The notes: generated by a model from the letters alone, not told the origin. Numbered from the stretch's first letter, positions 13,043 to 54,413 are shown. The stretch is DNA of 64,000 nt from Planctomycetota bacterium (GCA_022072415.1 JAJVHW010000006.1:4958-68957), one strand, 5' to 3'. Numbers and translations are program-made.

Positions 13043-13516
13043 TCATCCATCCTCTCCCCAGGCCCCATTGGACTCGGAGCAAAGGAAGACCGTTCGCCCC
13101 GGATACAACCCAAACGGATCTCGAATGATAACGTACCTTCCACCCAATCCCGGTCCCCAATCCGGGCGTGGCTCAATAAACCTAAACAGCGTGGGCCGAA
13201 GATCGATGCGCTCAGGTGCGATATCCATGACATTCATTCGAAGATACCCGCTCACGGCCGCGCTATGAGAGATTCGATGTTTCAACGTTTGCCCAGACAG
13301 TATCGACAACACGATCGCGATCACTCCCGCCGGACCGGAAACAATGGAGAACGATCGGACTAACAGCGACGACTTCCTGCACCTGTTCGCAAATGGCACA
13401 AACCACAAGAATGCAGCGATGGCGACTGCAATCACCGCGCCCGTGCGCGCGAATACCCAGGCAAGCATGAACGAAAGCAGCGTCCCGATCAACAGACGAA
13501 ACGTCCACTTATGCAT
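13043..13516 (-). CDS. Hypothetical membrane protein (low-GC cargo ORF)
   Basis: MHKWTFRLLIGTLLSFMLAWVF...AVAIAAFLWFVPF has 3-4 hydrophobic segments. Codon usage is atypical of the host. Confidence 0.45.
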   Translation of the reverse strand: MHKWTFRLLIGTLLSFMLAWVFARTGAVIAVAIAAFLWFVPFANRCRKSSLLVRSFSIVSGPAGVIAIVLSILSGQTLKHRISHSAAVSGYLRMNVMDIAPERIDLRPTLFRFIEPRPDWGPGLGGRYVIIRDPFGLYPGRTVFLCSESNGAWGEDG

Positions 13517-13699: not shown

Positions 13700-14617
13700 A
13701 CCGCATCTGTGGTGTGCCAAGAAACGATTCCGGTTTGACGAGGGCGTTCACCGGACACCTCGGGTTCGTCTGATGAGTCCGAGTTCCTCCATCGATGCAT
13801 AGATCGCTTCACGCCGCGCCTTGCGCCGCGCTCGCTCCGATTCGACGCCCGGCAGGGCCTCGGCGAGACGACGGCTGAGGGTCGCGAGGAAGCGTTCACG
13901 AGTCCCAGCATCGTACCAACCCGTCAAGTCCGCGTCCGCCGCCGAGGCCGTCCTGTACCCGAGCCCTCTGCGCAGCCGCCGTTCGTCGAGCAGCGTTCTT
14001 GCCTTCTCGATGCGTGCACGGACCGGGGCGGCGTCGTTCACGACGACACCGCGGCCGAGACCCGTCTCCTCCTTCAGCTCGCGGTTCGTCCTCTCGACCC
14101 ACGCGCTGTGCTGCGGCGTGTGCGGCAGCAAGAGCGGATGCACGACGCCCTGCTCCTTCAGCCACTCCTCGACCGTCCCGCACCTGTAGATCGGGCCGTT
14201 GTCCGTCACAAGCACGAGCGGCAGGCGGCCGCGCTCCACGGCGATCCGCGTGAGGAGTCGCACGACCGCGTCGCCGTCCGCCGGAGCGCCGACCTCGGCG
14301 GCGAGGATCCTCGGCGTCGACACCTCGCGCACCACCTGCCCCTCGACCGCCTCCCCGCCTTCGGTGCGCGCGAGGTGCGTTCCGTCCATCGACCACATCA
14401 CGTCGCGGCCCCCGACCTCTACCGATGTGCGGTGTTCGGCCGCGTGCCCGCGCCGCTGCCTGCGGCGGCTCTGCTTGATCTCGGCGAGGCACTGCCGCAC
14501 GAGGCAGATCGTGAACTTCCGCCAGAAGTCCGGGACCGCCGACGTGCTCGACATCCACGCGCGCCTCGCCACGGCTCTTGAGAGGCTCCGCGAGCGCCAG
14601 CGCCGCACCTGACACAC
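13700..14617 (-). mobile_element. IS copy A: one terminus (TGTGGTGTGCCAAGAAACGATTCCGG) plus an N-terminally truncated rve/DDE transposase (13748..14617)
   Basis: The integrase core is recognisable (MWSMDGTHL, LVLVTDNGPIY, HSAWVERTNRELK). The N-terminal HTH is missing. Confidence 0.7.
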
Positions 14618-14671
14618 CGCCGGGTCCGGTGACTACGTGTCCTCTCCCACCGCGGGCGCACCTACCAGAGC

Positions 14672-15842: not shown

Positions 15843-15904
15843 GAGCGTCCCACTTGGCAACTCTTGACCGTACCCCGGCGCGACTGGCCCGGGTGAGTAT
15901 GACG

Positions 15905-16347: not shown

Positions 16348-16404
16348 GCATGCCAGCTCTCGAGTGTGACTCATGAAGTGTGATGCATGAAGATAGCTCG
16401 CTTG

Positions 16405-16880: not shown

Positions 16881-17063
16881 ACCTCCGACGCCGGAGGTGA
16901 GCGTCAGTCGCGGGCGTCGAGTTGCGGTCAGCCCGGCGCGTCACGGGCGGAAGTGAGGAACGCGCGATGCCCGGCACGGCCCGGCTCGGCCGGCGGGTAC
17001 CTGGCACCGAGTGCATCACCGAGCGGTGGGTTTGTACCTGGCTCCGCATGACATGGCTCCGTG

Positions 17064-17684: not shown

Positions 17685-17744
17685 CAGCGCTCACCTCGCA
17701 TGAGTGCCCGCAACATGCGCACATTATGCCTCACAGGAAACACT

Positions 17745-18470: not shown

Positions 18471-18513
18471 GGAACGTGACGTTCGCCCCCCGCCGCCGTC
18501 CTACACTCCGGCC

Positions 18514-24253: not shown

Positions 24254-24269
24254 GGGACATCCCGCACGC

Positions 24270-24659
24270 CTACTTCAGCCGCACCAGCTTCCCCTTGCGT
24301 CGCACGAGGTTCTTGTAGTCCCACTGGATGTCCCGCGCCTTCCCGAGCCACCGGGCGAGCGCCTTCACGTCCACCTGGTCGGCCGACGTGTACCGCGCCT
24401 CCGCCGCCTTGAAGCTGCCCTCCGGCGCGAGCCCCTCCTCGTCGAACGACTGCCCGCTCCAGAAGAGGAGCCGCACGCAATCCTTCAGCTTGCTGTAGCC
24501 CGCGACCGGATTCCCGTCGAGGAACCACACGGGATGCGCGTGCCACACCTTGTTCTCCGCCTCCGGCAGTCCGCGGTCGATCTCCGCCGCGAGCCGCTCG
24601 CAGATCGCCCGGTCTGCGGCCTTCTGCTTCGCGTTGTACGCCTTCGTGTCGGGATGCAT
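24270..24659 (-). CDS. DUF1801/YdhG-like protein
   Basis: A small soluble protein containing WHAHPVWFLDGNPVAGYSKLKDCVRLLFWSG. Confidence 0.5.
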   Translation of the reverse strand: MHPDTKAYNAKQKAADRAICERLAAEIDRGLPEAENKVWHAHPVWFLDGNPVAGYSKLKDCVRLLFWSGQSFDEEGLAPEGSFKAAEARYTSADQVDVKALARWLGKARDIQWDYKNLVRRKGKLVRLK

Positions 24660-25159
24660 GGGTCGGCTCCGGGTCGGGCGGGCTCGTCACAGTCTACCCG
24701 CGAGGGTCCCGTCGGTCAGTCCGGCGACGGCGCGGGCACGCCGGCTGGAAGACGCAGGGCGGAACGCCTGACGGGGCGGCGCGCGGATCGGCTCATCGCC
24801 GGGAACGAGCGCCTGAACGACGTGTGCGATTGACCCCGACCGGCCCGAGCGCCCCGCTCGCTCGGACGTTCCGCATCGACGAATCGCGCTCATCGAAGGC
24901 GACATCGGCGACCTGCGCAGGACACTCGCAGCCGCGCATTCGACGCGAAAGCGTTCACGATGACCGCACGTGCACTCTCGGACGACGGTGGACGACCTCG
25001 GTGCCGACGACTCGCTGCTGGAGCGAGCCTACGTCGCCCCCACGCCGGGATTCGCTGTCTGGCTCGCCTCCGATCAGGTCGTCGCCGGTCGGGGATGCGG
25101 CAGAGAGGTCCGATCCGCCAGAGTCTTCGCGAACGACAGGAGTCGGCGCATCGCCGACC

Positions 25160-26032
25160 TCACCCCTCGAACGAGTACCCCGCCAGGAACGGCTCGGACG
25201 CGATCAGCGCGTCGATGCGGCGGCGGTGATCGGGGGTGAAGGGGAACGTGTCGCGGCTTCGGCGGGGCGACGGGAAGATCACGGCGGCGCAAGCGTCGAG
25301 GAACGGCGGCGGAGCGTCGAGCCCGACGAAGGAGCAGAGGCGGCGGACCTCGCGGCGCGGGTCGGCGATCACGTCCTCGTGGCGGACGTCGAGGACGGAG
25401 CCGCGGCGGAACGCGTCGTCCCACACTCCGGCCGCGTCGCGGATCCTCGCGACGCCGCGGACGAGGCCGGACGTGACGTCGATCAGCTTCTCCATCGGCG
25501 CGCCGCTCCGCCGGTGGCGCGTCGCGAGGATGTCGTACGGATTCCGCGCCACGTGGACCAGCCTCGGCGGCGCGCCGAAGAGCGCCGCGGCGCGCGCGAG
25601 GAGCGTGGGTTCGGCGGAGAGGCGGCGCACGGAGCGGGCGCCCTTCTTGTCGCCCATCACACGGAGGTCGCCCGTCGCGCCCTGCCCGGCGCCGGGGACG
25701 GCGTACGAGTAGTCCATCCACTTCCGGTCCATCGCCTCGAACTGGCGGCCGTTCTCGAGGACGAGGGAGAGGATCTCCTCGCGCGAGAACCCGCGGTCTA
25801 CGAAGTGGAAGAGGTCGAGTTCGTGCGCGACCGCGGCCTGCGGGTGCGCGTCGAGGAGCGACCCGAACAGGCTGTGGCCCGAGCGCGGGTAGCCGATGAA
25901 GACGACCACCGTCTTCACGCCCGCGAAGAGCGGCGCCTCGCGGCGCGCGGCGTCGGCCGAGAACGTGCGGAGGAGTCCGACGTCGGCCTCCGGGTATCGC
26001 TTGATGCCGACGCACGGCGGGACGGGCGTCAC
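25160..26032 (-). CDS. Sulfotransferase family protein (GTG start overlapping the ABC gene stop)
   Basis: The PAPS 5'-phosphosulfate-binding-like loop VVFIGYPRSGHSLFGSLL is present. It occupies the 3' portion of ORF 25160..28678. Confidence 0.7.
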   Translation of the reverse strand: MTPVPPCVGIKRYPEADVGLLRTFSADAARREAPLFAGVKTVVVFIGYPRSGHSLFGSLLDAHPQAAVAHELDLFHFVDRGFSREEILSLVLENGRQFEAMDRKWMDYSYAVPGAGQGATGDLRVMGDKKGARSVRRLSAEPTLLARAAALFGAPPRLVHVARNPYDILATRHRRSGAPMEKLIDVTSGLVRGVARIRDAAGVWDDAFRRGSVLDVRHEDVIADPRREVRRLCSFVGLDAPPPFLDACAAVIFPSPRRSRDTFPFTPDHRRRIDALIASEPFLAGYSFEG

Positions 26033-28696
26033 GCCGGGAGCTCCTCGTCGTCGTCGGACCCGGCGTCCGCATCCCCGGACGAGTCGCCGCCTTCGGACTC
26101 CGCCTTCTTCCGCTCCCCCATCTGCCGGTCCCACATCTCCTTGAACCGGCCGCCCTCGCGGTCCATCAGGAGCGACGGCGGGCCCTGCTCGACGATGGCG
26201 CCCTGGTCGAGCACGACCACGTGGTCGGCGTCGCGAATCGTGGAGAGTCGGTGCGCGACGACGATGACGGTGCGGCCGTGCATCAGCTTCGCGAGCGCGG
26301 CCTGCACCTGCGACTCGGCGTGGCTGTCGAGGGCGCTCGTCGCCTCGTCGAGGATCAGCACCGGCGCGTCCTTCAGGATCGCGCGGGCGATGGTCACGCG
26401 CTGGCGCTGCCCGCCGGAGAGCGACGTGCCGCGCTCGCCCGCCATCTTCCCGTAGCCGCCCTCCATGCGGGCGATCTCGTCGTGGACGAACGCGTCGCGC
26501 GCGGCCTGCTCGACCTGCTCGCGCGTGGCGCCGGGGCAGCCGTAGCGGATGTTCTCCTCGATCGACGCGTTGAAGAGGAAGGCGTCCTGCGTCACGATCG
26601 CCACGTTTGCAAGGAGGCTCTCCTTCGTGACGCTCCGCGCGTCGCGCCCGTCGAAGAGCACGGCTCCCTCCGTCGGGTCGTAGAACCGCGCGACCAGGTC
26701 GCAGATCGTCGTCTTCCCCGCGCCGGTCGGGCCCACGAGCGCGACGACCTTCCCCGCCGGGACCACGAGGTCGATCCCGCGCAGGATGTCCTTCTTCCGG
26801 TAGGCGAAGCGCACGCCGCGGAGCTCGATGCCGCGCGAGAGCGGGCCGCGGGGCATGCGGTCCGCGCCGTCGGGGAGCGTGTCCGGCTCGTCGAAGATCT
26901 CGAAGACGCGCTCGGTGCCCGGGACCGCCTCGATCAGCTTGTTGATGACGGAGGTGATCTCCTTCGACTGCTGGTAGCAGGTCTGGACGATCAGCGTGAA
27001 CGCGAAGAGGTCGCCCACCGAGACGCGCCCCGCGAGCACGAACTTCCCTCCGTACCAGACGAGCAGCGCGCCGCCGCCCATCTGCATCAGGTCCATCAGC
27101 GCCTTGCTCATCGCGGAGAGCCGCTGGAGCTTCCGCGCCTCGCGCCGGTAGCGGTGGACCACCTCGTCGAGGCGCTCGGTCTCGCGCGTCTCGCCGGAGA
27201 ACGCCTTCACCACCTTGATCCCGATCATCATCTGGAAGATGACGTGGCTGATCTCGGCCAGGATGAGCTGCCGCGTCTCCGCGCGCTTCTTCACCTTGCG
27301 CGCGATCCGGTAGAGCGGGAAGACGAGGAGCGGGAGCCCGAGGAGGATGAGCGCGAGGCCCCAGTTCGTGACGAAGGCGAGCAGCAGCGCGCCGGCCAGC
27401 ACGAAGGGCGCGGTGAACGCCGTCTCGAAGACCTGGTTCAGCACGTTCCGGAGCGACGCGACGTCGCGCTCGAGCCGCGCGACGAGGTCGCCGAGCTTGT
27501 GCTTCCCGTAGAAGGAGAGCGGCAGCCGGACGAGCTTCGCGCCGAGCGAGACGCGCACGTCGGCGATCATCTGCGTCGCGTAGAAGTTCTGGAGGTAGTC
27601 GCGGAGGAACCCCGTCCCCGCCATGAGCACGCCCACGCCGAGGGTCGCCCACGAGAGCCAGCGGAGGCGGTCGAGGGCGTCGGCGCCCGGGTCCACGAGC
27701 ACGTCGTCGAAGAGCTCGCTCCCGAGCTTGATCTTCAGCATCTGCGAGGCGGAGAAGAGGCCGCCCAGCACGATGACGACGAGGATCCCCCACCTGTACG
27801 GCTTCGCGAACGAGTAGACGCGGAGGAGCGACGAGATCCGGCCCTGCCGCCCTCCGACCCAGAGGAACGCCGCCACGACGCCCGTGAGCAGCGCGCCGCC
27901 GAGGAGCACGTGCCACGGCTTCGCGCGGCCGACGTACTGCGCGCCGACGCGCAGGCTGAGCCCGCCGGTGTCGCGGAGCGCCTCGCCCTCGGTCATCTCC
28001 ACGAGGACGCCGAACCGCGGGGCGTTCCGGCCTTCGCCGTACGCGGCGGAGAGCTTCGACCACGTCGCGAGCACGCGCTCCGACTTCCCTCCGCGGAACG
28101 TCGGCGGGTTCCCGTCGTCGTCCGGCTCCGCGAGGCCGCCGCGGCCCTGGAGGTGCTTCGCAAGCGCCTCGACGCCCTTCGACTCGTGGTCCTTGTCGAA
28201 GCGGTGGCGATGGCGCTCCTGCACGGCCTTCGGGTCGCCCTGCATGCGGAAGAGGACGCGGCCCGTGTCGTCGGCGACGGCCAGGTGCTCGTAGTTCCCC
28301 GACGACGCGCGCCCGCCCACCGGCGGACCGACGGCGGCGACCGCCTGCGCGCGCGCCGCGAGCGTCTCGTAGCGGATCTTCGCGGAGCGCCCGTTCTCGG
28401 AGATCGCGAGGTTCCGCGGCAGGAACTCGACGGTCAGCTCCGTCTCCGTGCCGCCGCCCCACCGGTCGATCGGCGGCGGCGGGGCCGCCGACATGTCGCC
28501 CGCGGCGAGCGCGGCGCGGGCCGACGCCACGGTCGAGGCGATCTCCCCGTCGAACGCCTTCCGCGCCGCGTCGATCCGCGCGAACGCCGCGCGGCGCGCG
28601 ACCGCCGACGCCCGGGAGTCGTTCACCGCGGTCGCGACCGCCGCCACGAGCATCGCGAACGCGAGCACGCACAGCCACGCCTGGATGCGCCTCATC
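26029..28696 (-). CDS. ABC exporter (fused permease/ATPase, MsbA-like) with an extra 280 aa N-terminal periplasmic domain
   Basis: Walker A GPTGAGKTT, the ABC signature LSGGQRQR, Walker B ILILDEATSALD and six TM helices are all present. An N-terminal signal-anchor plus a soluble domain precedes the transmembrane domain. Confidence 0.85.
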
Positions 28697-29816
28697 GCGG
28701 CGGCTCCGGCCGGCTTCCGAGGAGTTCGCGGTAGACCGCGAGGTTCCCCCCGACCATCGCGTCGATCGTGAACTTCCGCTCGACGTGCCGCCGCCCCTCG
28801 TCGGCGAGGCGGGCCGCGAGCGCGCGGTCCGCGAGCAGGCGCAGCACCGCCGCGGCGAGCGCGGCTGGGTCGCGCACGGGCACGGTGAGTCCGGTCTGTC
28901 CGTCCACGATCACTTCGGGGATTCCTCCCGCCGCCGAGCCGACACAGGGCCGCCGGAGCGCCAGCGCATCGAGCAGGCTCGTGCAGAGGCCCTCCAGCAC
29001 GCTGCACATCACGAAGACGTCGCAGCCGGCGAGGAGCGAGGGTACGTCGGTGCGGAACCCCGTGAAGACGATTCGGGACGCCACGCCGAGCGCCTCGGCC
29101 TCGGCGCGCACCTTCGGCAGGCACTCGCCCTCGCCCACGAGGACGATCCGCGCCTCGGGGTGGGCGGCCAGGATCGCCGGCGCCGCGCGCACGAGGAACT
29201 CCTGCGCCTTGTGCCAGCCGAACGCCGCCACGTCGAGGATCACGGGCGCGCCGCGCGGCATCCCGAACTCGGCCGCGTAGTCGTGCGGCGCGACGCCGTC
29301 GAAGCGCGCGAGGTCGATCCCCGAGTGGACGACGCGGATCCGCTCCGGCGGGATCCCGTCCTTCACCATCTGCGCGCGGATGCCCTCGCTGATCGCCACG
29401 TAGCGGTCCACGCCGAAGCGGTACTTGAACCACGAGAGCCGGAGCGCGTTCCGGTAGATCGTGAAGTCCACGCGGCGGGAGACGACGGTCTTCCCGATGC
29501 CGGCCGCCTTCGCCGCGAGCACGCCCAGCGTGTGGGCATGGCTCGTGTGCATGTGGATCACGTCGGGGCGGAACGAACGGAAGACGCGGCGGAGGCGGAG
29601 CACGCCGGCCGGGTCGGCCTCGCCCCGCGTCCGGACCTCGGCGACGTCGAGCCCCTTCGCGCGGCAGCGCTCGACGTACGGCATCCCCGGCTGCCCGACG
29701 CAGAGGTTCGTCACGCCGCGGCGTGCGAGTCCCTCGGCCAGGTAGAGCGCCTGCTGCTCGCCCCCGCGCCAGCCCTTCTCCGTGTCGATGTGGAGGACGC
29801 GGAGGGGGGCCGTCAC
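28692..29816 (-). CDS. Glycosyltransferase family 4
   Basis: A GTG start gives VTAPLRVLHID. The EX7E-like region CSVLEGLCTSLLDALALRRPCVGSAAGGIPEVI is present. It forms an ATGA overlap with the ABC exporter gene. Confidence 0.8.
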   Translation of the reverse strand: MTAPLRVLHIDTEKGWRGGEQQALYLAEGLARRGVTNLCVGQPGMPYVERCRAKGLDVAEVRTRGEADPAGVLRLRRVFRSFRPDVIHMHTSHAHTLGVLAAKAAGIGKTVVSRRVDFTIYRNALRLSWFKYRFGVDRYVAISEGIRAQMVKDGIPPERIRVVHSGIDLARFDGVAPHDYAAEFGMPRGAPVILDVAAFGWHKAQEFLVRAAPAILAAHPEARIVLVGEGECLPKVRAEAEALGVASRIVFTGFRTDVPSLLAGCDVFVMCSVLEGLCTSLLDALALRRPCVGSAAGGIPEVIVDGQTGLTVPVRDPAALAAAVLRLLADRALAARLADEGRRHVERKFTIDAMVGGNLAVYRELLGSRPEPPR

Positions 29817-30949
29817 GCCGGCACCCCCGCCCCGGCGCGCGCGGCGTCGCGGTAGGCCTCGACGGTGCGGCGCGCCGTCTCCTTCCAGTCGAACTGCGCG
29901 GCGCGCGCGTGGCCGCGTCCGATCCACGCCTGCCGTTCGCCGCCGTCGACGAGCCGGAGCGCCGCCGCGGCGAGTTCCTCCTCCGAGTCGGGGTGCACGA
30001 GCACCGCGGCGCCGCCGCAGGTCCCCTCCGTGGCGGCCGCGCGGGCCGCGACGACCGGAGTCCCGCACGCCATCGCCTCGAGCACGGGGAGCCCGAAACC
30101 CTCGCCCTTCCCGGTGAAGCAGAACGCGACAGCCCCGGCGTAGAGCGCGGGGAGCTCGTCGTCGCCGACGTATCCCAGACGCTTCACGCGCGACGCCACG
30201 GGGAGCCCCTCCGCCGCGGCGAGCACGTCCTGCCCCCCCGTCTGCACCGGCCCCGCGAGCACCAGGTCGAGGTCGAGCCCGGGGCGCCGCGCGTGGATCG
30301 CGCCGAACGCGCGGACGAGAGGCATCAGGTTCTTCCGGGCGGAGATCTGCCCCACGAAGAGCAGGTACGGCGACCGGAGCCCGTTCGCCTCGCGGACTCT
30401 CGCCACCGCCTCCGGCGTCTGCGGACGGAACGCCGCGCCGAGCCCGAGCGGCACGACGCGCGTGCGCGGCGCGGCCTCCGGGAACCGCCGGAGGAACGCG
30501 TCCCGCGTGTAGTCGGAGATGCAGAGGATCACGGCCGCGCGGCGCGCCACGTCGGCGAGCGCCCGCTCCTTCGTGCGGCGGAACTTCTCGTCGGCGATCC
30601 CCGGGAGCTCGAGGGCGGAGAGGTCGTGGACGGTGGACACGCAGGGGACCCGGCGGAACTTCGGGATGCGGAGGTCGGGCCCGTGGATCACGTCGAGGCC
30701 CCGCGGGCGGATCGGGATCGGACCGTCCTGGAACCAGCGCATGCGGAACCGCGCGTCCTCCGGCACGACCACGTGGGCCCGCCGCCCGAATCGGGAGATC
30801 CGGTAGAGGAGGTCGGCCCGGTCGTCCTCGCCGAGGACGGCCGGGAGCGCGTCCACGAGCGACGCGCAGTAGCGCGCGACCCCCGTGCGCTCGGCCTTCG
30901 CCACGCACGAGCAGTCGATGCCGATCCGCATCGGGCCGATTGTCCGCAA
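29813..30949 (-). CDS. Glycosyltransferase family 4
   Basis: MRIGIDCS at the N-terminus and GEGFGLPVLEAMACGTPVV in the catalytic region. It forms a GTGA overlap with the downstream GT4. Confidence 0.8.
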   Translation of the reverse strand: MRTIGPMRIGIDCSCVAKAERTGVARYCASLVDALPAVLGEDDRADLLYRISRFGRRAHVVVPEDARFRMRWFQDGPIPIRPRGLDVIHGPDLRIPKFRRVPCVSTVHDLSALELPGIADEKFRRTKERALADVARRAAVILCISDYTRDAFLRRFPEAAPRTRVVPLGLGAAFRPQTPEAVARVREANGLRSPYLLFVGQISARKNLMPLVRAFGAIHARRPGLDLDLVLAGPVQTGGQDVLAAAEGLPVASRVKRLGYVGDDELPALYAGAVAFCFTGKGEGFGLPVLEAMACGTPVVAARAAATEGTCGGAAVLVHPDSEEELAAAALRLVDGGERQAWIGRGHARAAQFDWKETARRTVEAYRDAARAGAGVPA

Positions 30950-31629
30950 CGGACCCCGAAACCGCGCCTTTGAACCCGACGCGAGTAGGATCGGCCGCTC
31001 TGGGCGACCCCGTGGTTCCGTCGGCAGAGGACGTCGAGCGCGCCACCGTCGCGACGCTCGGGAAGCAGGGCGCGTTCCGGCCCACGGTGAGGCTCGTCGA
31101 GGCGGGCGGGGAGCGGCTCGTCGCCAAGGACTACCGCGCGTGCACGGCGCTCTACCGCTGGACGGTGGGCGCGTGGAACCTCGCGCGGGAGGAGTCGGCG
31201 CTCCGGCGGCTCGACGGGATCGACGGCATCCCGCGGTTCCGGGGGCGCGCGGGGCGGTGGATCCTCCTCATGGACTGGATCCGCGGCCGCGACCTCGGGA
31301 AGGTGCGCCGGTTCCGCCAGACGCCGGAGTTCTACGACCGTCTGATGGCCGTCGTGGCCGAGATGCACGCCCGCGGAGTCGTCCACCTGGACCTCCGTCA
31401 GCGCCGGAACATCCTCTTCCGCCCCGACGGCGCCCGGCCGGCGGTGCTCGACTTTGGCTCCGCTCTCTGTCTCCGTCCGGGGACACTCATGCATCGCTTC
31501 CTTTCGCGGATCGACCGCTCGGGAGTCCTCAAGTACAAGCGGCGGGCGCAGCCCGACGCGCTGTCCCCCGAGGAGGCACGGGCGTTGCGATCCGTGGAGA
31601 GGCGAAGGAAGTGGTGGCCGTTCAGTTGA
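30940..31629 (+). CDS. Kdo/lipopolysaccharide-kinase family protein (protein-kinase-like fold)
   Basis: VVHLDLRQRRNILF...VLDFGSA is an HxD/DFG-like catalytic core. The start is uncertain because it overlaps the divergent GT4 5' end. Confidence 0.6.
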   Translation: MSATDPETAPLNPTRVGSAALGDPVVPSAEDVERATVATLGKQGAFRPTVRLVEAGGERLVAKDYRACTALYRWTVGAWNLAREESALRRLDGIDGIPRFRGRAGRWILLMDWIRGRDLGKVRRFRQTPEFYDRLMAVVAEMHARGVVHLDLRQRRNILFRPDGARPAVLDFGSALCLRPGTLMHRFLSRIDRSGVLKYKRRAQPDALSPEEARALRSVERRRKWWPFS

Positions 31630-31693
31630 CTCCGCACGGAAGACCTGCGGGACGGCCGCCGCGACGTGATCCGCGTTCCGAGGAGGAACCCCG

Positions 31694-32953
31694 ATGCTGA
31701 CGCAGTCTCTCCCCCGCCGCGCGCCGCTCTGGCGCCGCGCCGCAGCGTACCTCGCCGTGTTCGCGGCCACCGTGCTCGGCGCCGGCCGGGCCCTGGCCGG
31801 CGACGCCGTGAAACTCCAGTTCGAGTTCATCGACGACCGCACGCAGATCAACGCCGCCGAGTCGATCGACGTGCAGATCGTCGGGATCGACGCGACCGGC
31901 GCGCGCGTCGGGTTCAAGGACCTCGAGGTGTCGGCCACGGGCGGCACGTTCACGGTCGTCCGCCAGCCCTTCTCCTGCCGCTACACGGCGCCCGCCGAGG
32001 GCACCGACCTCGCCGCGTACCGGCTCCGCGCGTGGCTGAAGGCCCGCCCGGAGGTGAGCGGCGAGGCGACGATCACCGTCATCCCGCCCCCCGCCTACAA
32101 GCGCCTCGCGATGACCGGACCGGGCACGACGCCCGCCGGGGCGTTCGTGGACCTCGACCTCCTCGGCGAGAACGCCGCGGGCCAGATGGTCGCCGCCGAC
32201 CCGGCCACCGTCAGCGTGAAGGTCGCCTCCGGCCCCGGCACGATCACGCTGGTCAAGCCCGGGCGCTACAGGCTCGCGACCGAGGTGAAGGACACCGGCA
32301 CGTCGCGCGTCGTCGCGTCGCTGGTGCGCCACCCGTCGATCCAGTCCACCGTGGACGTGGTCGTGACCGGCGCGGCCACGCCGCAGCCCCAGCCCCAGCC
32401 GCAGCCCCTCCCGGTTCCTCCGCCGACCGGCGGCTCGGGATCCTCCGGCGGCGGCACGCCCCCGGCCCCGCCCGCCGGGGGCGGCGCAGGCGGCGGCACG
32501 AAGCCCGTCGACCCGCCGAAGCCGGTGGACAAGAACGACGTCGTCTGGCCGAGCGGCAACATCCGCATCGGCGCGTGGCGCACCATGGCCGCGGGCGACG
32601 CCGACTGGAGCGACTCAGAGAAGTCGATGCCGAAGCCTGCCGGCGAGTTCGTCGCGCGGAAGGACAAGCAGAAGCTCCGCATCGTGATCGAGCGGAAGGA
32701 CACGATCAAGGTCGAGCTCGAGGAGTGGATCGGCGACAAGAAGGGCGCGGACGTGAAGCGCCTCGACCCGACCAAGGACGGCCGCTTCCAGCTCGAGCGG
32801 AACAAGAAGGACCAGTACGTCATCCACTTCGAGGCGGCTCCGCCGGACAACGGGAAGCCCCTGAACCTGGCGATCCTCCTGACCTTCGCGGACAACAAGA
32901 TCGCCCGCGAGGAGATCGTCCTGCGCCGCGACGCGCCGGAGCCGAAGAAGTAG
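31694..32953 (+). CDS. Secreted hypothetical protein with a (PQ)n linker
   Basis: An AGGAGGA RBS precedes a signal peptide MLTQSLPRRAPLWRRAAAYLAVFAATVLGAGRALA. There is a PQPQPQPQPLPVPPPTGGSGSSGGG linker. Confidence 0.65.
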   Translation: MLTQSLPRRAPLWRRAAAYLAVFAATVLGAGRALAGDAVKLQFEFIDDRTQINAAESIDVQIVGIDATGARVGFKDLEVSATGGTFTVVRQPFSCRYTAPAEGTDLAAYRLRAWLKARPEVSGEATITVIPPPAYKRLAMTGPGTTPAGAFVDLDLLGENAAGQMVAADPATVSVKVASGPGTITLVKPGRYRLATEVKDTGTSRVVASLVRHPSIQSTVDVVVTGAATPQPQPQPQPLPVPPPTGGSGSSGGGTPPAPPAGGGAGGGTKPVDPPKPVDKNDVVWPSGNIRIGAWRTMAAGDADWSDSEKSMPKPAGEFVARKDKQKLRIVIERKDTIKVELEEWIGDKKGADVKRLDPTKDGRFQLERNKKDQYVIHFEAAPPDNGKPLNLAILLTFADNKIAREEIVLRRDAPEPKK

Positions 32954-36710: not shown

Positions 36711-37863
36711 CTACGCAGTCCCGGCGGCCCGCTTTCCGAGGATCACCTCGTAGAACGCCTCGATCCGCCGCGCCTGGAGCGCGAGTCCGTAGCGGCGGTG
36801 CGCGATGTCGTGGGCCGACGCGGAGAGCCGCTCGCGGAAGGAGGCGTCCTCGGCGAGGCGGATCAGCGCGGACGCGAGTTCGTCGGGGGAATCGCCGACG
36901 AGGATCCCGTTCACGCCGTCCTCGATCAGGTCCACGAGGTGCCCGCGGCGCGCGGCGACGACGGGCACGCCCATCGCGAGCGCCTCGCGCGCGGCGCGGC
37001 ACGAGCCGTCGCTCCCGGGGACGAGGTACACCTTCGCGTGCATGCAGCGGAGGGTCGCCACGTACTCCGACCCGCGACGGTAGCCCGTGAAGATCGCCTT
37101 GCCCTGGAGGTCCTTCCGCGCGGCCGGCTTCACCGCGACCTCGTCCATCCACGTCCCGCGTCCGACGAGCAGGATCTTCATGCGCGGCACGCGCCGCGCG
37201 ACCTGCGTCATCGCCTCGAAGAACACCTCGAACCGGCGGTGACGCTGCATGCGCGCGACGATCCCGACGACGAAGTCCTCCGGCTCGATCCCGTAGTCCT
37301 TCCGGAGGTCCGGGAGCCCCTTCGCCCGGGGGTTGAAGCGGCGGAGGTCCACCGCGCCGTCCACCCAGATCGCGCGCTCCTCCTCCAGGCCGAACCGCTG
37401 GACCACGGAGTTCCGCACGCGCTCGCTGATGGCGACGACGCCCGCGCATCCGCCGCGGAGGAGGGTCTTCGTGTCCTTCGTGACCGGCGGCGGATCGCCG
37501 TCGTAGAGCGAACGGACGATCGGGATCCCGAGCCCCTCGGCCGCGCCGAGCGCGATGCGGTGGTCGTTCGGGAGGTGGCAGTGGATGACGTCGGGGCGGT
37601 GCTTCCTCAGCCACGCGCGGAGCGCGCGGCGGTCGAGGGCGTCCCAGATGGGGTTCCGGTGCTTGCCGAGGCGGAGCACGAGCCGCGGCTCGAGCCCGCG
37701 GCGGCGGGCCTCGTCGGCCACGTCGTTCGGGAGCGGCTCCACCTCGCGCCCGCAGAGGAACTCCACCGTGTGCCCGCGCTGGCGGAGCTGCGCCGCGAGG
37801 TTCACGGCCGGCTCCGCCGGACCGGTCCACTTCCAGTTCGCGAAGAGATGCAGGATGCGCAAG
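36711..37863 (-). CDS. Glycosyltransferase family 4 (probable TTG start)
   Basis: RILHLFANWKW at the N-terminus and EALAMGVPVVAARRGHLVDLIEDGVNG in the catalytic region. Confidence 0.75.
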
Positions 37864-37873
37864 ACGTGGATCC

Positions 37874-39607
37874 TCACTCGATCGGGTCCATGCGGACGAC
37901 GATCTTCCGCCGGCACTCCGCCGCGACGCGGCGGAACCACTCCTTCCACCCCGCAGCCACCTCGGGACGCCCCGCGGCGTACGCGCGGAAGAACCGCAGG
38001 CGGTCCGCGAGGGAGATGCACACGGGCACGCTCGCCGAGAGCTGCGCCAGGTTCTTCACCCGCCGGCGGAACGGCACGCGGCGGTCGAACTCCACGCGGT
38101 CGTAGTCGGCCAGCACGAGCCGGGGCCCCGCCGCCGCTCCGCGGCGGAGGAACAGGTTCACCGCCTTCAGGTCGCCGTGGTAGACGCCCGCGTCGTGGAG
38201 CCGGCGGACGAGCGACGCAGCGGCCTCGACGAGCGCGCGCTTCTCGGCCCGGCGCGCGGCGTCGGGGGCCGACGCGTGGCGCGCGAGCACCACGAGATCG
38301 GACCGCGTGCCGTCCCCGAGGTCCTCCATCACGAGGAACGCGTCCCCGAGCGCCGCGCCGCGCCCGCGGACGAGGAGCGCCAGCGGCTCCGCCGCGTCGA
38401 AGCCGCGGACGAGGAGCCCGTTCCCGGCGACCCATGCGGCCACGGCCCGCGGAGTCCGCACGAGGTTCTTCGCCCGGTCCATCGCGCCGCCCCGCCGGTA
38501 CTGCTTCACGATCACGCTGCGCGGCGCGCCGCCCTCCTCCGGCGGCGGGAGGCTCTGGCGCGTGAGCGCGGACCGGCTCCCGTCCTTCAGCACGTTCCTC
38601 GCCTTCGCCGCCACGTCGCGGAGGTGCGGCGCGACGAGCCCCGCGAGCGCGCGGGCGTCGAGGGTCCGGAGGTGATGGACGCGCATCCCCTCCGCGGCCG
38701 TCACGTCGAACTTCGACGACCGGGCGAGGCTCCGGTCGGTGCGGCTCCGCACGCGCCGGAGCTCCATCCTCGCGAGCTCCGGCTCGAGCGCCGCGGAGAG
38801 CGCGCCTTCCGCGAGCAGGCGTTCCACGCGCGTGCCCGACGGTCCGCCCGCGGTCGCGTACGTCTCGCAGATCCTGCGCCGCTCCTCCTCCGTGCTGCAC
38901 GTGAGCATCGAGTGGAGGAGCTTCACGAGGTCGAACCATCGCGCCGACTCCGACGGGCGCGCAGGGCGCGTCACCGAGTGGAGGTCGATCACGTGGAGCG
39001 ACGGCGCGTCCGGCGGCCCGTTCACGAGGAGGTTCCCGCCGTGGAAGTCGTTGTGGACGAACCCCGCGTCGTGCATCCGGCGGACGAGGCGCGCGAGCGC
39101 GTCGTAGAGCGCGCCGCGGAGCGCCGCGCGGCGGTCCGCCTCGGCGCGGTCGCCTTCGGCGGCGGCGCCCCCGAGCATGTGCTTCTCGACGAACGCGTTG
39201 AGATGGAGCGCGTCGGGGATCTCGCGCGTGACCAGCGCCGCGTCGCGGAGCACGCCTCCTGCGCGCCGCTCTCCGAAGGCGAGGGGCACCGACGTCGGAA
39301 TGCCCGCCGCGTCGAGCGCGCGGCCGACGTCCCACTCGGTCTTCGCGCGGGAGTCCTTCACCGCGTACTTCACCACGTCCTGCGCGCCGGACACGCGGTA
39401 GCGCTTCACGATCACGCGGCCGCCGCCGGGCATCGGCACGCGGAACACCGCGCGGACGAGGTTCCGCTTGAGCACCGCGACGCCGGGCGCGCCGTCGATC
39501 TCGCCGAGCCGCCCGGCGATCCCGGCGCGCACCGCCTCCGCGGTCGCCGCCTCCGCGGTCCATCGGAGCCCCGAGGCGTCGAACGTCACCGTCGCCTCAG
39601 CGGGCAT
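37874..39607 (-). CDS. Protein with two tandem Kdo/LPS-kinase-like domains
   Basis: Domain 1 contains VIVKRYR...FVHNDFHGGNLLV. Domain 2 contains VIVKQYRRGG...VYHGDLKAVNLFL. Confidence 0.7.
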   Translation of the reverse strand: MPAEATVTFDASGLRWTAEAATAEAVRAGIAGRLGEIDGAPGVAVLKRNLVRAVFRVPMPGGGRVIVKRYRVSGAQDVVKYAVKDSRAKTEWDVGRALDAAGIPTSVPLAFGERRAGGVLRDAALVTREIPDALHLNAFVEKHMLGGAAAEGDRAEADRRAALRGALYDALARLVRRMHDAGFVHNDFHGGNLLVNGPPDAPSLHVIDLHSVTRPARPSESARWFDLVKLLHSMLTCSTEEERRRICETYATAGGPSGTRVERLLAEGALSAALEPELARMELRRVRSRTDRSLARSSKFDVTAAEGMRVHHLRTLDARALAGLVAPHLRDVAAKARNVLKDGSRSALTRQSLPPPEEGGAPRSVIVKQYRRGGAMDRAKNLVRTPRAVAAWVAGNGLLVRGFDAAEPLALLVRGRGAALGDAFLVMEDLGDGTRSDLVVLARHASAPDAARRAEKRALVEAAASLVRRLHDAGVYHGDLKAVNLFLRRGAAAGPRLVLADYDRVEFDRRVPFRRRVKNLAQLSASVPVCISLADRLRFFRAYAAGRPEVAAGWKEWFRRVAAECRRKIVVRMDPIE

Positions 39608-40379
39608 CCGGCCTCCAGAGGTCGCGTCCGAGCTCCCGGAGCTTCGCGTACTTGAGGAAGACGTAGTAGGCGCCCGACACGGCCGCGCAGAAGCCCGCCG
39701 CGCCGTCGAGGAAGCCCGCGCGGAGCACGTACATCCGCACGAACTTCCCGAACGGGCGGAGCGTCAGGTCGAGGAGCCCCGCGCGCCGTCCGGCCGCATG
39801 CTTCTCGCGCGCCGCGATCGACGTGAACGAGTCGATCGTGCGGAGATGGTCGGAGAGCGAGCGGTAGCTCAGGTGGAGGAGATCCCCGCCGATCCGCCGC
39901 ACCGGGCCGCCCCCGGGGTCCGTCACCACGTGATCGTGCGGGTTCGTCCCGCCCCACCGCGCGCGGCTCCTCCGGAAGAGCCGGAGCTTCCGGTCCGGAT
40001 ACCAGCCGCCGTGCCGGATCCACCGCCCGAGGTAGAACGTGCGCCGCGCGCACTCGAAGCCGGCGGCGTCGCCCGGCGACCCGAGCGCGGCGAGGATCGA
40101 CGCGCGGAGCTCCGGCGAGACGCGCTCGTCGGCGTCGAGGCAGAGCACCCAGTCGTGCGTCGCCTCCGAGAGCGCGAAGTTCTTCTGCTGCACGTGCCCC
40201 GGCCAGTCGCGCTCGATCACACGCGCCCCGGCCGCCGCGGCGAGTTCGCGGGTGCGGTCCGTCGAATGGCTGTCCACCACGACCCACTCGTCCGCGAAGT
40301 CCGCCGAACTGAGGCAGTCGGAGATGTTCGCCTCCTCGTTCATCGCGACGATGCACACGGAGAGTTTCGGACGCGTCAC
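39597..40379 (-). CDS. Glycosyltransferase family 2
   Basis: LSVCIVAMNEE...WVLCLDADE (DxD motif). The GTG start overlaps the upstream kinase stop (GTGA). Confidence 0.75.
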   Translation of the reverse strand: MTRPKLSVCIVAMNEEANISDCLSSADFADEWVVVDSHSTDRTRELAAAAGARVIERDWPGHVQQKNFALSEATHDWVLCLDADERVSPELRASILAALGSPGDAAGFECARRTFYLGRWIRHGGWYPDRKLRLFRRSRARWGGTNPHDHVVTDPGGGPVRRIGGDLLHLSYRSLSDHLRTIDSFTSIAAREKHAAGRRAGLLDLTLRPFGKFVRMYVLRAGFLDGAAGFCAAVSGAYYVFLKYAKLRELGRDLWRPDAR

Positions 40380-41209
40380 AGCGCGGCCCCCCGGACGGGG
40401 CGGACGGCGTCGTGCCGCGCGATGTGCGCCGCGAGCCGCGAGGCGAGGGCGCGGAGGTCGTCGCGCGACGGCCAGTCGGCGCCGGCGTATGCGCGGAGGA
40501 CCCGCATGCGGTCCGCCCGGGTCACCGGGTGCCCCGCCGCGGCGACCTTCGCGGCGTAGCGGTCGAACCGGAACAGTCCGGCGAGCCGCCTCTCGCGCGG
40601 GAGCGGACGCGCGCGCTTCACGCGGTCGAGGTCGAGGACCCGGACCGCGGCACCGTCGGCGAGGAGGTTCTTCAGGTGGAGGTCGGGGTGGTCGAAGCCC
40701 GCGTCGTGAAGGGCGCGGATCGACCGGCCGGAGGCGGCGAGGATCGCGCGGCGCGCGGCCGGCGCGAGGCCCTCGGCGAGCGCCTGCTCGACGTCGCGGG
40801 CACCGGGGACCTCCTCGAGCAGGAGCCATCCCGCGCGGAACAGCGCGTCGGCACGCCGCGACACGACGCCCAGCGCGCGGCAGACGGGGACTCCCGCGGC
40901 CTCCGCGTCCACGTGCGCGCGAAGCTCGCCGAGGAACCGCCCGTCGCCGACGTGGCGCGCCCCGGTCACGCGGCCGAGCACCCCGCCGTGCAGGTACGGG
41001 CGCACGAACACGCGCCCGGCTCCGGGAACCTCCACCGAGAAGGGCCGCCCGCGCCCGCGGAACTCGCGGACCGCCCGCAGGCGGGCCGACGCGGGGTCGG
41101 CGAGCGACGCGGCCAGCGCGTCGGCGACGTCCTCGCGGAGCACCATGTCGGCGCCCCCCGAGGACCGCCGCACGAAACCGCGCGGAAGCTCAGCCGCCGT
41201 CGGGCCCAT
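40376..41209 (-). CDS. Kdo/LPS-kinase family protein (KdkA/WaaP-like)
   Basis: FDHPDLHLKNLLADG...VLDLDRV in the catalytic region. Confidence 0.65.
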   Translation of the reverse strand: MGPTAAELPRGFVRRSSGGADMVLREDVADALAASLADPASARLRAVREFRGRGRPFSVEVPGAGRVFVRPYLHGGVLGRVTGARHVGDGRFLGELRAHVDAEAAGVPVCRALGVVSRRADALFRAGWLLLEEVPGARDVEQALAEGLAPAARRAILAASGRSIRALHDAGFDHPDLHLKNLLADGAAVRVLDLDRVKRARPLPRERRLAGLFRFDRYAAKVAAAGHPVTRADRMRVLRAYAGADWPSRDDLRALASRLAAHIARHDAVRPVRGAAL

Positions 41210-46530: not shown

Positions 46531-47532
46531 TCAGAAGTCCCAGGTCCACCCGATCGAGAGCGACCCGAACCGCTGGCCGCCGTCCTGCCCCTCGAACTCG
46601 TCGGTGCGGTGGACGTGCGTGTAGGCGATGCGGAACTTCCCGAACTCCAGCGCGATCCCCGCGCGGAGCTCCGCGACCAGGGGCTCCTTGTCCACGTCGT
46701 GCCCGTCGTGGAACAGCGGCCCGTCGAGGAACGCGTTCCGGCCGACGGCGCGCGCGTCGGCGCCGCCGAACACGTACCAGCGGGGCGACGAGCCGCGGTC
46801 GCCGTCGTCGGGGACCTCGATCGCCGTGGTGTGGATCGTGTTGACGCCGAAGTCGCGCGGCAGCCGCCAGCCGAGCCGCGCCTGGAGGCCCCCCACGGCG
46901 TTCGCGTGGATCGTCCCGAGGCTCGCCCCGACCTTGCCGAGCACGTCCCAGTCCATCTGCGAGAACGCCTCGCCCGCTGCGAGACGGCGGCGGTACTCGT
47001 AGGTGCCGACGATTCCGGCCTCGCTCGCCGCCTGGTGGCGCCACCCGCGCGGGCGGTCGGACCCGGTCCAGTCGTGGACGAGCTTCTGCGCGTCCTCGGC
47101 GAGCGACGCGGCGCCGGTGACGCCCACGTCCACCTCGAACGTGCTCGCGTAGTCTCCGACCGGGTGCTCGCCCGCGCGCCGCCCCGCATTCGCCACGAGC
47201 AGGCCGGCGTAGAGCCAGCCCGCGTACGGGCGGTCGTCCTCGATCCTCCGGCGGAGCTTGATCTTCTCGGGCGTGTAGACCTCCTGCGCGACGACCGCCC
47301 CGATCTGCGTCGTGGAGCCGCGCTCGTAGAGCGGCGTGGCCGACGCGGCGGCGCGCATCCACTCCGGCGTCGCGTCGGCGTCGAACATCGACGAGACGCG
47401 GAACCCGCTCGTGTAGTAGCGGTCGCTGCGGTTGCCTGCGCCGAAGATGTCGTTCTCGAAGTGGATGCTCGTGGTGCCGCAGGCCGCGAGCAGGAGCGGA
47501 GCGGCGGCGGCGGCGTTGCGCGTGGTTCGCAT
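46531..47532 (-). CDS. Outer-membrane beta-barrel protein, lipid A deacylase LpxR-like (DUF2219)
   Basis: Lipoprotein-like signal [19 protein letters not shown] beta-strand-rich sequence ends in GWTWDF. Confidence 0.5.
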
Positions 47533-53180: not shown

Positions 53181-54413
53181 TCAGGCGCGACCCGCCGCCA
53201 CGGACTGCACGCGGAGCACGGCCGCGGCCCTCCGTCCGTCGGGCGAGATCCGGCAGCGGGACCCCCGCGGCACCAGCACGGCGCCGCCCGAAGGCGCGAT
53301 CCATGCGCGGTCCCCGGCGTGGACGCGGATCGGCCCGGCGAGCACGATCATCACCACGTCTCCCCGCTCGGCGACGACGCGGACTTCGGCACCCGCGGGG
53401 ATCTCGTCGCGAACCGCACGCACGCACGACGACGCGACCGCGAACGACTCCGGATCGCGGCTCGCCGCCTCGGGAGTGACGTGGCGCCACTCGAGCGGCC
53501 GCGGTCCCGCGGGATCCGCCACGGTGAACGCGCGATATGCCCGCACCTCGTCGAGACCGTCCACGCCCAGCGCCTCCGCGAGTCCGCGGTCGTCGTCGGG
53601 GTGCTCCGCGAGGTACCTCACGACGAACGTCCTCCGGAGCGACTCCGCCGTGCAGCGCACGCCCGCCGCGTCGGCGGCCCGGCGCACGGCGTCCTCGACC
53701 GCACGCGCGTCCATCGCCGCCCGCCCGCCCACCCGGAACAGGAATCCTCCCCGCCGGCGCGGGTTCTCGGCGAGGAGCGCGGCCATCCGGGCCGACGCGT
53801 AGGGACCGAGACGGAGGAGCTTCGGGCGGCGCCCCCGGACCCGCACCCACTCCGCGCGTCCGGCGCGGATCTGGACGTCGCCGGACCGGATCCGCGCGGC
53901 GTCCTCCGCGCGAAGCCCCGTGCCGAGCAGCAGCGACACGATCGCCGCGCACTGCGGGCCGAGCACGTCCGCCGCGGCCCGCAGGCGCCGCTCGCCCGCC
54001 GCGTCGAGGGCCGCCGTCGCGTCCCTGCGGGCGACGTCGAGGAACGGAAGCTCCGCGAACCCGCGGGCCGTGCGCTCGAGCCACGGCTCCGCGCGTGCGG
54101 CGAACGCGGCGTAGCGGCGGAGGAAGGAGAGCCGGCGGTTCAGCGTCGCCGGCGCGGTCCCCGAGGCGAGCTGGCGCCGGCGCATCCGGTCGAACCTGGC
54201 CGGTCCGAAGTCCTTCAGGTCGAACTTCCGCCCCCGGGGACCGGCGCACGCCGCGAGCGTGGCCCAGTCCGACGCGTAGCACGCGCGCGTGACCGGCGCC
54301 AGGCCGTCGCGCCGCAGGTGCTCGCGGAACGCCTCGAACCGGCGCGCCTCGCGCGGCGTCGCGCGGTCACCCCCGGATTCGGCGACGTTTCGTGCGGGCG
54401 TGCGCGTACTCAT
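53181..54413 (-). CDS. Fusion of a tyrosine-recombinase-like domain (degenerate catalytic residues) with a C-terminal cupin
   Basis: SAM-like N-domain FREHLRRDGLAPVTRACYASDWATLA and box I LLLGTGLRAEDAARI. Box II is degenerate (LRRTF in place of LRHxF, and the second His is lost). Cupin-like EVRVVAERGDVVMIVLAGPIRVHAGD. Confidence 0.6.
   Translation of the reverse strand: MSTRTPARNVAESGGDRATPREARRFEAFREHLRRDGLAPVTRACYASDWATLAACAGPRGRKFDLKDFGPARFDRMRRRQLASGTAPATLNRRLSFLRRYAAFAARAEPWLERTARGFAELPFLDVARRDATAALDAAGERRLRAAADVLGPQCAAIVSLLLGTGLRAEDAARIRSGDVQIRAGRAEWVRVRGRRPKLLRLGPYASARMAALLAENPRRRGGFLFRVGGRAAMDARAVEDAVRRAADAAGVRCTAESLRRTFVVRYLAEHPDDDRGLAEALGVDGLDEVRAYRAFTVADPAGPRPLEWRHVTPEAASRDPESFAVASSCVRAVRDEIPAGAEVRVVAERGDVVMIVLAGPIRVHAGDRAWIAPSGGAVLVPRGSRCRISPDGRRAAAVLRVQSVAAGRA

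Follow-up and report, generated by a model that had tools for sequence, protein, structure and literature searches.

Phosphate and acidic sugars usually supply the negative charge of the lipopolysaccharide (LPS) core, and this charge binds the outer membrane together via divalent cations and sets its sensitivity to cationic peptides and phages. To our knowledge, the only precedent for the sulfation of LPS comes from rhizobia. In Pseudomonas, the core cluster (P. aeruginosa PA4996-PA5012; P. syringae PSPTO_4983-5003) contains msbA, the family-4 glycosyltransferases (GT4) WaaG/WapG, and several kinases of the WaaP family (PMC8005017). The LPS of Sinorhizobium meliloti is sulfated by LpsS, a dispensable enzyme of the Stf0 family whose biological role is called unclear in a passage of PMC12445080 (citing Cronan and Keating 2004). 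Here, we describe a four-gene operon that encodes two GT4 enzymes (GT4a and GT4b), an ATP-binding cassette (ABC) exporter, and a sulfotransferase, and that is located in a 64,000-nucleotide stretch of DNA from a Planctomycetota bacterium (GCA_022072415.1, JAJVHW010000006.1:4958-68957; the whole stretch is called the window below, and positions are counted from its first letter).

In the pathway that we propose, GT4a and GT4b would extend the growing lipid A-core with sugars on the cytoplasmic side of the inner membrane, and the soluble sulfotransferase, with 3′-phosphoadenosine 5′-phosphosulfate (PAPS) as the donor, would put a sulfate ester on a core sugar or on lipid A before flipping. The sulfate would add a negative charge beside the phosphates contributed by neighboring WaaP/Kdo-type kinases (Kdo, 3-deoxy-D-manno-oct-2-ulosonic acid). 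The ABC protein, as a dimer of MsbA-lineage half-transporters, would then flip the finished molecule to the periplasmic leaflet. Since overlaps of four nucleotides (nt) couple the translation of the genes, enzyme and flippase would be made together. We regard cytoplasmic sulfation of lipid A-core followed by MsbA-type flipping as the best reading of the operon and give it about an even chance. The original prediction, made from the sequence of the window, had also proposed a sulfated product made at the inner membrane and then flipped or exported by the ABC protein, and we retain sulfation followed by flipping; it had assumed a separate sulfated glycoconjugate as the product, for which we substitute lipid A-core.

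Layout of the operon and its surroundings

Because the G+C content of the window (∼73%) gives long open reading frames (ORFs) in every frame, gene frames were chosen by third-position GC, and an independent frame-scoring gene call served as a cross-check. Third-position GC was 0.92 to 1.00 in one phase, in the expected frame, along each of the four minus-strand genes, and the gene call gave the same boundaries: 29813..30931 for GT4a (372 amino acids [aa], the first gene of the operon), 28692..29816 for GT4b (374 aa), 26029..28695 for the ABC protein (888 aa in a single open frame), and 25160..26032 for the sulfotransferase (290 aa, the last gene, with a GTG start that overlaps the ABC stop codon). 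Neighboring genes overlap by 4 nt at GTGA (29816..29813), ATGA (28695..28692), and GTGA (26032..26029). All three sites had been located correctly in the original prediction, which drew the ATGA overlap one base too long (28692-96) and counted four junctions, while four genes have three. Overlaps of this length occur in 6 of the 32 same-strand neighbor pairs of the window, half of them (3/6) within the four-gene cluster; being that common here, they mark an operon and are nothing exceptional. The GT4b/ABC overlap is kept in eight relatives. GT4a most likely starts at ATG 30931 rather than at TTG 30949, from which the cluster had first been drawn, because, in homologues, both the alignment and the called start coincide with residue 1 of the ATG version. 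A scan for consensus promoters from 24200 to 31700 found none, and terminators were not above the shuffle expectation, a scan that is uninformative at 73% GC; an Rfam scan of the whole window gave no match.

The four domain assignments (GT4, GT4, ABC exporter, and sulfotransferase) all lie above the Pfam gathering scores. GT4a matched Glyco_trans_1_4 (92 bits; cut-off, 27), Glycos_transf_1 (77 bits), and Glyco_transf_4 (40 bits), and GT4b scored 124, 115, and 82 bits over three profiles, Glyco_trans_1_4 giving the 124 bits (cut-off, 27). The profiles of the GT-B fold, Glyco_transf_4 for the N-terminal and Glycos_transf_1 for the C-terminal domain, were above the cut-off in both enzymes. By eye, GT4a carries an EX7E-type motif of the normal E...E form (GEGFGLPVLE). 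In GT4b, an invariant E275-G-L-C-T-S-L-L-D283 stands at residues 275 to 283 in place of the usual EX7E motif, with Asp as the second acidic residue (also by eye).

Relatives were found through the sulfotransferase and ABC proteins and through a genome-wide scan with the GT4b alignment, which revealed more than 508 GT4b relatives in genome contigs; 80 loci were retained from these matches. In the relatives, the order small kinase (divergent), GT4a, GT4b, and extended ABC gene is conserved, with identities to the window proteins of 46 to 63% for the ABC protein, 56 to 69% for GT4a (in L003, L008, L009, and L011), and 71 to 82% for GT4b in close relatives, where it is the most conserved gene of the module. 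All carriers are uncultured. The synteny comparison thus bears out GT4-GT4-ABC together with the divergent kinase, and it is the sulfotransferase that is only occasionally retained (see below).

The divergent neighbor is a small protein-kinase-like gene of ∼205 aa on the plus strand (31012..31629). It had been predicted as a Kdo-kinase-like gene at 30940..31629; a divergent gene does adjoin the operon there, its frame being open from 30940, with a start probably near GTG 31012 that would leave ∼80 bp of divergent intergenic DNA. Its matches to Pkinase and APH are weak, those to the NCBIfam models PRK12274 (68 bits) and KdkA (25 bits) are below the cut-off, and its PDB matches are RIO2 and protein kinases. 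Genes 62 to 75% identical to it occupy the same divergent position in L003, L009, L011, and L012-L019; the small kinase of L070 is not a close relative (BLAST E value of 0.17). Next to it, in the same orientation, lies a gene for a 419-aa secreted protein, p419 (31694..32953, plus strand), with a signal-like N terminus, a Pro/Gln/Gly-rich linker, and no match in Pfam or NCBIfam; a 45%-identical homologue adjoins the kinase in L009 and L010, and p419 recurs in L013-L018.

Within 20 kb, the window encodes three Kdo/WaaP-like kinases, two of them in the Pfam Kdo/WaaP family PF06293, a family-2 glycosyltransferase (GT2), a third GT4 (GT4c), and an LpxR homologue. The minus-strand block upstream of the kinase/p419 pair consists of a Kdo/WaaP kinase (40376..41173; PF06293, 66 bits), GT2 (39597..40358; Glycos_transf_2, 64 bits), a double Kdo/WaaP kinase (37874..39589; PF06293, 132 bits), and GT4c (36711..37877; Pfam GT4 domains). 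This block stands directly upstream of kinase/GT4a-GT4b-ABC in L009, L013-L018, L021, and L029, and the closest Planctomycetota show the full arrangement, from the Kdo kinase, GT2, double Kdo kinase, and GT4c through the p419/kinase pair to GT4a-GT4b-ABC. Farther out, the homologue of the outer membrane lipid A deacylase LpxR (46531..47532, minus strand; Pfam LpxR, 294 bits, with the whole profile covered) indicates that the organism makes and remodels lipid A.

We then looked at 120 ORFs within ∼6.5 kb of GT4b in ten loci outside the window's clade, from Desulfobacterales, delta- and gammaproteobacterial metagenome-assembled genomes (MAGs), an anammox Planctomycetota MAG, Eiseniibacteriota, and Acidobacteriota. 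GT4 enzymes aside, Kdo/WaaP kinases (14), GT2 (10), GT9 heptosyltransferases (6), WaaA (4), and lipid A acyltransferases (4) were the commonest neighbors, and there were also Sulfotransfer_3 proteins (3). In L070, for example, GT9, a Kdo kinase, and Sulfotransfer_3 share one strand and are followed by a double kinase, GT2, a further glycosyltransferase, GT4b, and GT2, after which GT4c and WaaA lie on the other strand. Because Kdo/WaaP kinases, GT9, WaaA, and lipid A acyltransferases crowd around the GT4b orthologues, the GT4b neighborhood in other phyla is, judged by its gene content, that of an inner-core locus. WaaA and GT9 are present around GT4b in those phyla and not in the window, so that for the window the link to the inner core comes from family context.

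The original prediction had taken the cluster for a separate sulfated-glycolipid or glycan system. We abandon this part of it, since the cluster is not self-contained and sits among kinases, GT2, GT4c, and LpxR in an LPS-core-type locus, with the family context of GT4b pointing the same way. That the four genes form the tail, or terminal operon, of a core-assembly locus is a claim that we hold with moderate confidence, and from membership in an LPS-core-type locus it would follow that the likely product is lipid A-core.

The extended ABC exporter

The core of the ABC protein (residues 291 to 888; 26029..27825, minus strand) comprises a six-helix ABC_membrane domain (148 bits, residues 306 to 571), a nucleotide-binding domain (ABC_tran, 108 bits, residues 638 to 787), and an acidic C-terminal tail. 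One ABC_membrane plus one nucleotide-binding domain is the layout of a half-transporter, and the ATPase motifs appear intact by eye (Walker A GPTGAGKTT, signature LSGGQRQR, Walker B ILDEATSALD, H-loop AHRLS). Among NCBIfam models, MsbA_lipidA (TIGR02203) gave 438.4 bits against a cut-off of 602, and MsbA_rel gave 438.7 bits against a cut-off of 780; among half-transporters in the PDB, TM288 (310 bits) and Escherichia coli MsbA (306 bits) came out close together. In other Planctomycetota, the best model for the ABC gene at the same position is TIGR02203 in all cases (462 to 504 bits), and distant members of the phylum have an ABC gene of normal size (∼640 aa) after GT4b. The GT4b locus of an anammox genome also encodes, at another place, an MsbA of 632 bits, which is above the cut-off, and the GT4b locus of a Desulfobacterales MAG encodes one of 585 bits. 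Genes for lipid A and core functions (Kdo/WaaP kinases, glycosyltransferases, and LpxR) accompany the ABC gene within the window. Taken together, profile scores and gene context make it about equally probable as not that the protein is an MsbA-lineage half-transporter that would flip lipid A-core. A protein identical to it is recorded in a Planctomycetota MAG as "Vitamin B12 import ATP-binding protein BtuD" (MCG3133087.1), which is a misannotation judging from the domain content of an ABCB-type exporter.

As an "MsbA-type exporter," the description in the original prediction, the protein fits in that MsbA is its best-scoring family. It is not a plain exporter of this type, because it carries a periplasmic N-terminal extension of ∼290 aa. 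MsbA of E. coli and Salmonella (3b5w, 5tv4, and 6bpl) and the window protein are alike in the half-transporter core, with the 306-bit match and TIGR02203 as the joint-best NCBIfam model, and in their LPS-gene surroundings. They differ in the score (438 versus 602 bits), in the acidic C-terminal tail, and in length (888 aa versus ∼580 to 600 aa in solved MsbA chains), and no solved MsbA has the additional N-terminal transmembrane (TM) helix, periplasmic domain of ∼230 aa, and second TM helix.

This extension (residues 1 to 290; 27826..28695, minus strand) is in the same continuous third-position GC phase as the core and consists, by hydropathy, of a TM helix (residues 2 to 27), a hydrophilic stretch of ∼230 aa, and a TM helix (residues 260 to 282) right before the elbow helix. 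Because the hydrophilic stretch is flanked by two TM helices, we place it outside the cytoplasm. The same TM-loop-TM layout recurs in 13 related ABC genes with loops of ∼230 to 370 aa; in a sister group (L021, L024, and L029), the ABC genes encode 1,012 to 1,025 aa, with a loop of ∼370 aa versus ∼230 aa in an otherwise identical layout. The inserted periplasmic domain therefore differs in size between clades. An exhaustive HMMER search of 1.84 billion representative sequences gave four matches to the extension, namely, a clear orthologous ABC protein (E value of 1e-19), a probable orthologue (1.6e-5), and two low-complexity sequences. A Pfam scan of residues 1 to 300 gave no match, including no Cache or PAS profile.

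Structure prediction with AlphaFold2 from a five-sequence alignment gave a mean confidence (pLDDT) of 75 and a predicted template modeling score (pTM) of 0.69 for residues 1 to 335 and a pLDDT of 81 and a pTM of 0.82 for the cropped periplasmic part. Both models contain a long helix followed by two alpha/beta units, and for both, a Foldseek search against the PDB placed dCache ligand-binding domains at the top (Helicobacter pylori TlpA and Dickeya MkcA), with PAS and CHASE4 domains ranking next. The dCache matches are weak (E values of 3e-4 to 9e-4, template modeling scores of 0.24 to 0.34, probabilities of 0.97 to 0.99, and ∼10% identity). The extension thus shows a weak similarity to dCache (tandem PAS) domains, in the models and in architecture only, and we do not claim family membership. 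Like the dCache domains of H. pylori TlpA (6e0a and 9kpj) and Dickeya MkcA (9heh), it is predicted to lie in the periplasm, flanked by two TM helices, and its models show a long, stalk-like helix ahead of two alpha/beta units that may be PAS-like subdomains; unlike them, it lacks a Pfam match to Cache or PAS, and its output would be an ABC exporter and not a kinase, chemoreceptor, or cyclase. If the models are right, the domain might serve in docking to, or sensing of, something periplasmic. A literature search of incomplete coverage gave no direct report of an MsbA with a periplasmic domain, and we know of no ligand-sensing or docking module described for exporters of the MsbA type.

The sulfotransferase

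The sulfotransferase domain withstood the profile search that could have spoken against it, with 51.8 bits for Sulfotransfer_3 (cut-off, 27) and 35 bits for Sulfotransfer_1 (cut-off, 22). These were the only Pfam matches (E ≤ 0.01), a Stf0-type profile being unmatched, and NCBIfam yielded only a 16-bit NoeE fragment. The motifs GYPRSGHSL (residues 47 to 55), E71, GDK (127 to 129), and HxxRNPxD (160 to 167), all retained in the window protein, reach a conservation of 90% or more among the 123 family members; from general knowledge of the fold, we take GYPRSGHSL and HxxRNPxD to be the 5′-phosphosulfate loop and the 3′-phosphate motif of PAPS binding. Hydropathy revealed no TM or hydrophobic segment and no export signal. 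By these sequence features, the protein is a member of the PAPS-dependent family, with a predicted activity. The nearest solved structures are the sulfotransferase domains of CurM and OLS (4gbm and 4gox; E values of ∼1e-5), which share the P-loop-like PRSG motif and an RxPY motif; they differ in being polyketide synthase domains that act on a beta-hydroxyacyl intermediate, whereas the window gene encodes a stand-alone enzyme and lies in a glycan setting.

The original prediction had treated the sulfotransferase as part of the unit, a view that conservation does not sustain. We counted a locus as informative if its ABC gene is extended and its sequence continues for 750 nt or more beyond that gene (n = 14, including the window). 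Four such loci (the window, L003, L014, and L016) have a sulfotransferase directly 3′ of the ABC gene; the other 10 lack it, and there the operon stops at the ABC gene and usually faces a gene on the opposite strand. With an absence from 10 of 14 loci, it is dispensable for the module. This distribution suits the explanation that the enzyme is a passenger that reached an LPS-core operon by insertion and acts on an exopolysaccharide, a capsule, a small molecule, or a protein, the operon otherwise ending at the ABC gene or being followed by unrelated genes only. The more distant homologues (43 to 46% identity) lend themselves to the same explanation, since their surroundings are not LPS loci but polysaccharide clusters in which glycosyltransferases and several additional sulfotransferases are encoded, in L004 together with Wzx-type flippases; this setting also indicates that the sulfotransferase family acts on carbohydrates. 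The L004 cluster itself (GCA_036505015.1, DASXUC010000128.1, 127-12216) has six Sulfotransfer_3 genes, two Wzx-type flippases, several GT4 genes, a deacetylase, and methyltransferases, and this gene content makes it a candidate for producing an exopolysaccharide with heavy sulfation. In L007, the sulfotransferase homologue adjoins an FG-GAP/ASPIC-repeat protein.

Position and phylogeny speak against a passenger. The ABC-linked sulfotransferases are only 40 to 50% identical and still keep their position, with a start codon that runs into the ABC stop codon in the window and in L014. On a short contig, L094, the start of a 75%-identical sulfotransferase is overlapped by the end of an acidic ORF, with YchF downstream as in the window, so this copy is probably also ABC linked, its start overlapping an ABC stop. 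In a neighbor-joining tree, the four ABC-linked copies fall within a clade of 10 of the 123 family sequences, a pattern consistent with a gene that was inherited along with the operon and then lost repeatedly; one member of the clade, L093, does not adjoin an ABC gene, as the passenger explanation would allow.

A second Sulfotransfer_3 subfamily, typified by L070 (5198-6037), has practically no relationship to the window enzyme (BLAST E value of 0.003) and lies no farther than 10 kb from GT4b in 9 of the 80 genome loci (L070, L038, L076, L082, L074, L046, L055, L031, and L033). These are genuine LPS inner-core loci. In five of the Desulfobacterales type, the gene precedes GT4b by ∼5 kb, and in two Desulfonema loci, it comes directly after GT4b; among Planctomycetota, it directly precedes GT4b in one complete chromosome and stands ∼8 kb upstream in a second genome, L033. 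The L070 gene overlaps a Kdo/WaaP kinase gene and adjoins a heptosyltransferase. That an unrelated subfamily stands near the same GT4b family argues for a functional link between sulfotransferase and GT4b and against a passenger. Including the window-type enzyme in L014 and L016, 11 of the 80 loci have a sulfotransferase near GT4b, a raw count that is suggestive only. Weighing both sides, we consider it unlikely that the enzyme is a passenger. Our literature search, again of incomplete coverage, gave no direct report of a sulfotransferase in LPS core loci.

The lipid-linked product and comparison with known systems

Another lipid-linked glycan might be made and flipped in place of lipid A-core, either a sulfated glycolipid of the glycosyl-diacylglycerol type or an undecaprenyl-diphosphate-linked oligosaccharide, the latter with a PglK/Wzk-type ABC flippase serving O-antigen, capsule, or protein glycosylation. 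GT4a and GT4b resemble PimA/PimB, MshA, BshA, and PglA in searches of solved structures and NCBIfam, the ABC core is that of a generic ABCB-type half-transporter, and WaaA and a heptosyltransferase were not found in the window, all of which would suit such a product. On the other hand, Pfam identified no initiating phosphoglycosyltransferase, polymerase, or ligase beside the operon, the PglK model reached only 144 bits on the ABC protein and did so on the nucleotide-binding domain alone, and the positional equivalents of the ABC gene have MsbA as their best-scoring model, the locus MsbA of the anammox genome being above the cut-off. Together with the WaaA/GT9/lipid A acyltransferase loci that surround GT4b orthologues in other phyla, this makes a different lipid-linked glycan quite unlikely. 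An arrangement like RaxST/RaxB, with tyrosine sulfation of a peptide by the enzyme and secretion of that peptide through the ABC protein, is suggested by the adjacency of a sulfotransferase and an ABCB-type exporter and by weak, P-loop-only matches to tyrosylprotein sulfotransferases (E value of 0.06), and we reject it as highly improbable, since the ABC protein has no Peptidase_C39 domain, no gene for an HlyD-type membrane fusion protein is among the neighbors, no candidate precursor peptide gene is adjacent, the relatives of the enzyme occur in polysaccharide clusters, and such a pair would not account for the two GT4 genes.

Cytoplasmic sulfation of lipid A-core followed by flipping has its own difficulties. 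Besides the patchy occurrence of the sulfotransferase and its unlinked copy in L093, these are the failure of the ABC protein to reach the curated MsbA equivalog cut-off (438 versus 602 bits), its equal closeness to TM287/288-type exporters in the PDB, the capacity of GT4 enzymes to make glycolipids and undecaprenyl-diphosphate-linked glycans as well, the lack of WaaA, a GT9 heptosyltransferase, or an lpx biosynthetic gene among Pfam matches to 43 of the 46 called window genes, and the lack of PAPS synthesis genes in Pfam scans of the 64-kb window. We also know of no chemical evidence for sulfated LPS in this lineage.

If sulfation before flipping does take place in the cores of several environmental phyla, it would constitute a second, largely unstudied charge chemistry of LPS, and sulfate could matter under phosphate scarcity. 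Among type IV ABC exporters, a flippase of the MsbA lineage that bears a sensor-like domain in the periplasm would represent a new architecture, and it would be a candidate point of regulation in outer membrane biogenesis. Two unrelated Sulfotransfer_3 subfamilies may have been recruited independently beside a core GT4, in Planctomycetota and Desulfobacterales, with sulfate supplementing or replacing phosphate as the negative charge of the core; likewise, if the structural models hold, an MsbA-type flippase may have acquired a dCache-like domain in one planctomycete clade. Recurrent, chemically unrecognized core sulfation in environmental diderms combined with LPS flipping that responds to, or is physically coupled with, something on the periplasmic side through a dCache-like domain is unlikely when the two are taken jointly.

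Elsewhere in the window, the region 12700-18500 has a lower G+C content (0.64 to 0.67 versus ∼0.73) and a weak coding signal and contains an rve/DDE integrase-like ORF (13748..14617), a C-terminal fragment of a phage integrase (14672..14905), and a weak O-antigen-ligase-like fragment (13043..13516; 18.7 bits, below the cut-off). It looks like a decayed mobile element; an rRNA operon at 12.7 to 18.5 kb was considered and rejected, as there was no Rfam match and a mobile-element remnant was found instead. Three large FG-GAP/ASPIC-repeat proteins are encoded at 7320-9191, 9969-12023, and 34179-36590, one of them between the LPS-type block and the kinase/p419 pair. On the plus strand, 54475-57679 encodes a radical-SAM-like protein (just below the cut-off), a MoxR-type AAA ATPase, and a VWA/CoxE-like protein and adjoins a tyrosine recombinase gene (53181..54413). 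A 639-aa sulfatase-family protein (125 bits) is encoded at 2712-4631, and its location 20 kb from the sulfotransferase is probably a coincidence.

Of the systems described above, LpsS of S. meliloti resembles the window enzyme as a cytoplasmic, dispensable sulfotransferase proposed or shown to modify LPS. LpsS differs in belonging to Stf0 rather than to Sulfotransfer_3/Sulfotransfer_1 and, as presented in that passage of PMC12445080, in being regulated separately and uncoupled from msbA. The Pseudomonas core cluster is the closest characterized analogue, as it unites msbA, GT4 enzymes, and charge-adding kinases in one locus (PMC8005017); its counterpart in the window consists of the MsbA-lineage ABC gene, three GT4 genes, GT2, and three kinase-like genes. 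In contrast to that cluster, the 64-kb window lacks WaaA, WaaL, and a heptosyltransferase, its proteins have only remote similarity to those of Pseudomonas, and the ABC protein carries a 290-aa extension, misses the MsbA cut-off, and is coupled to a sulfotransferase. The operon is thus of a known general kind, that of the LPS core, and what is new about it is the coupled, variably present Sulfotransfer_3 enzyme and the periplasmic extension on the flippase.

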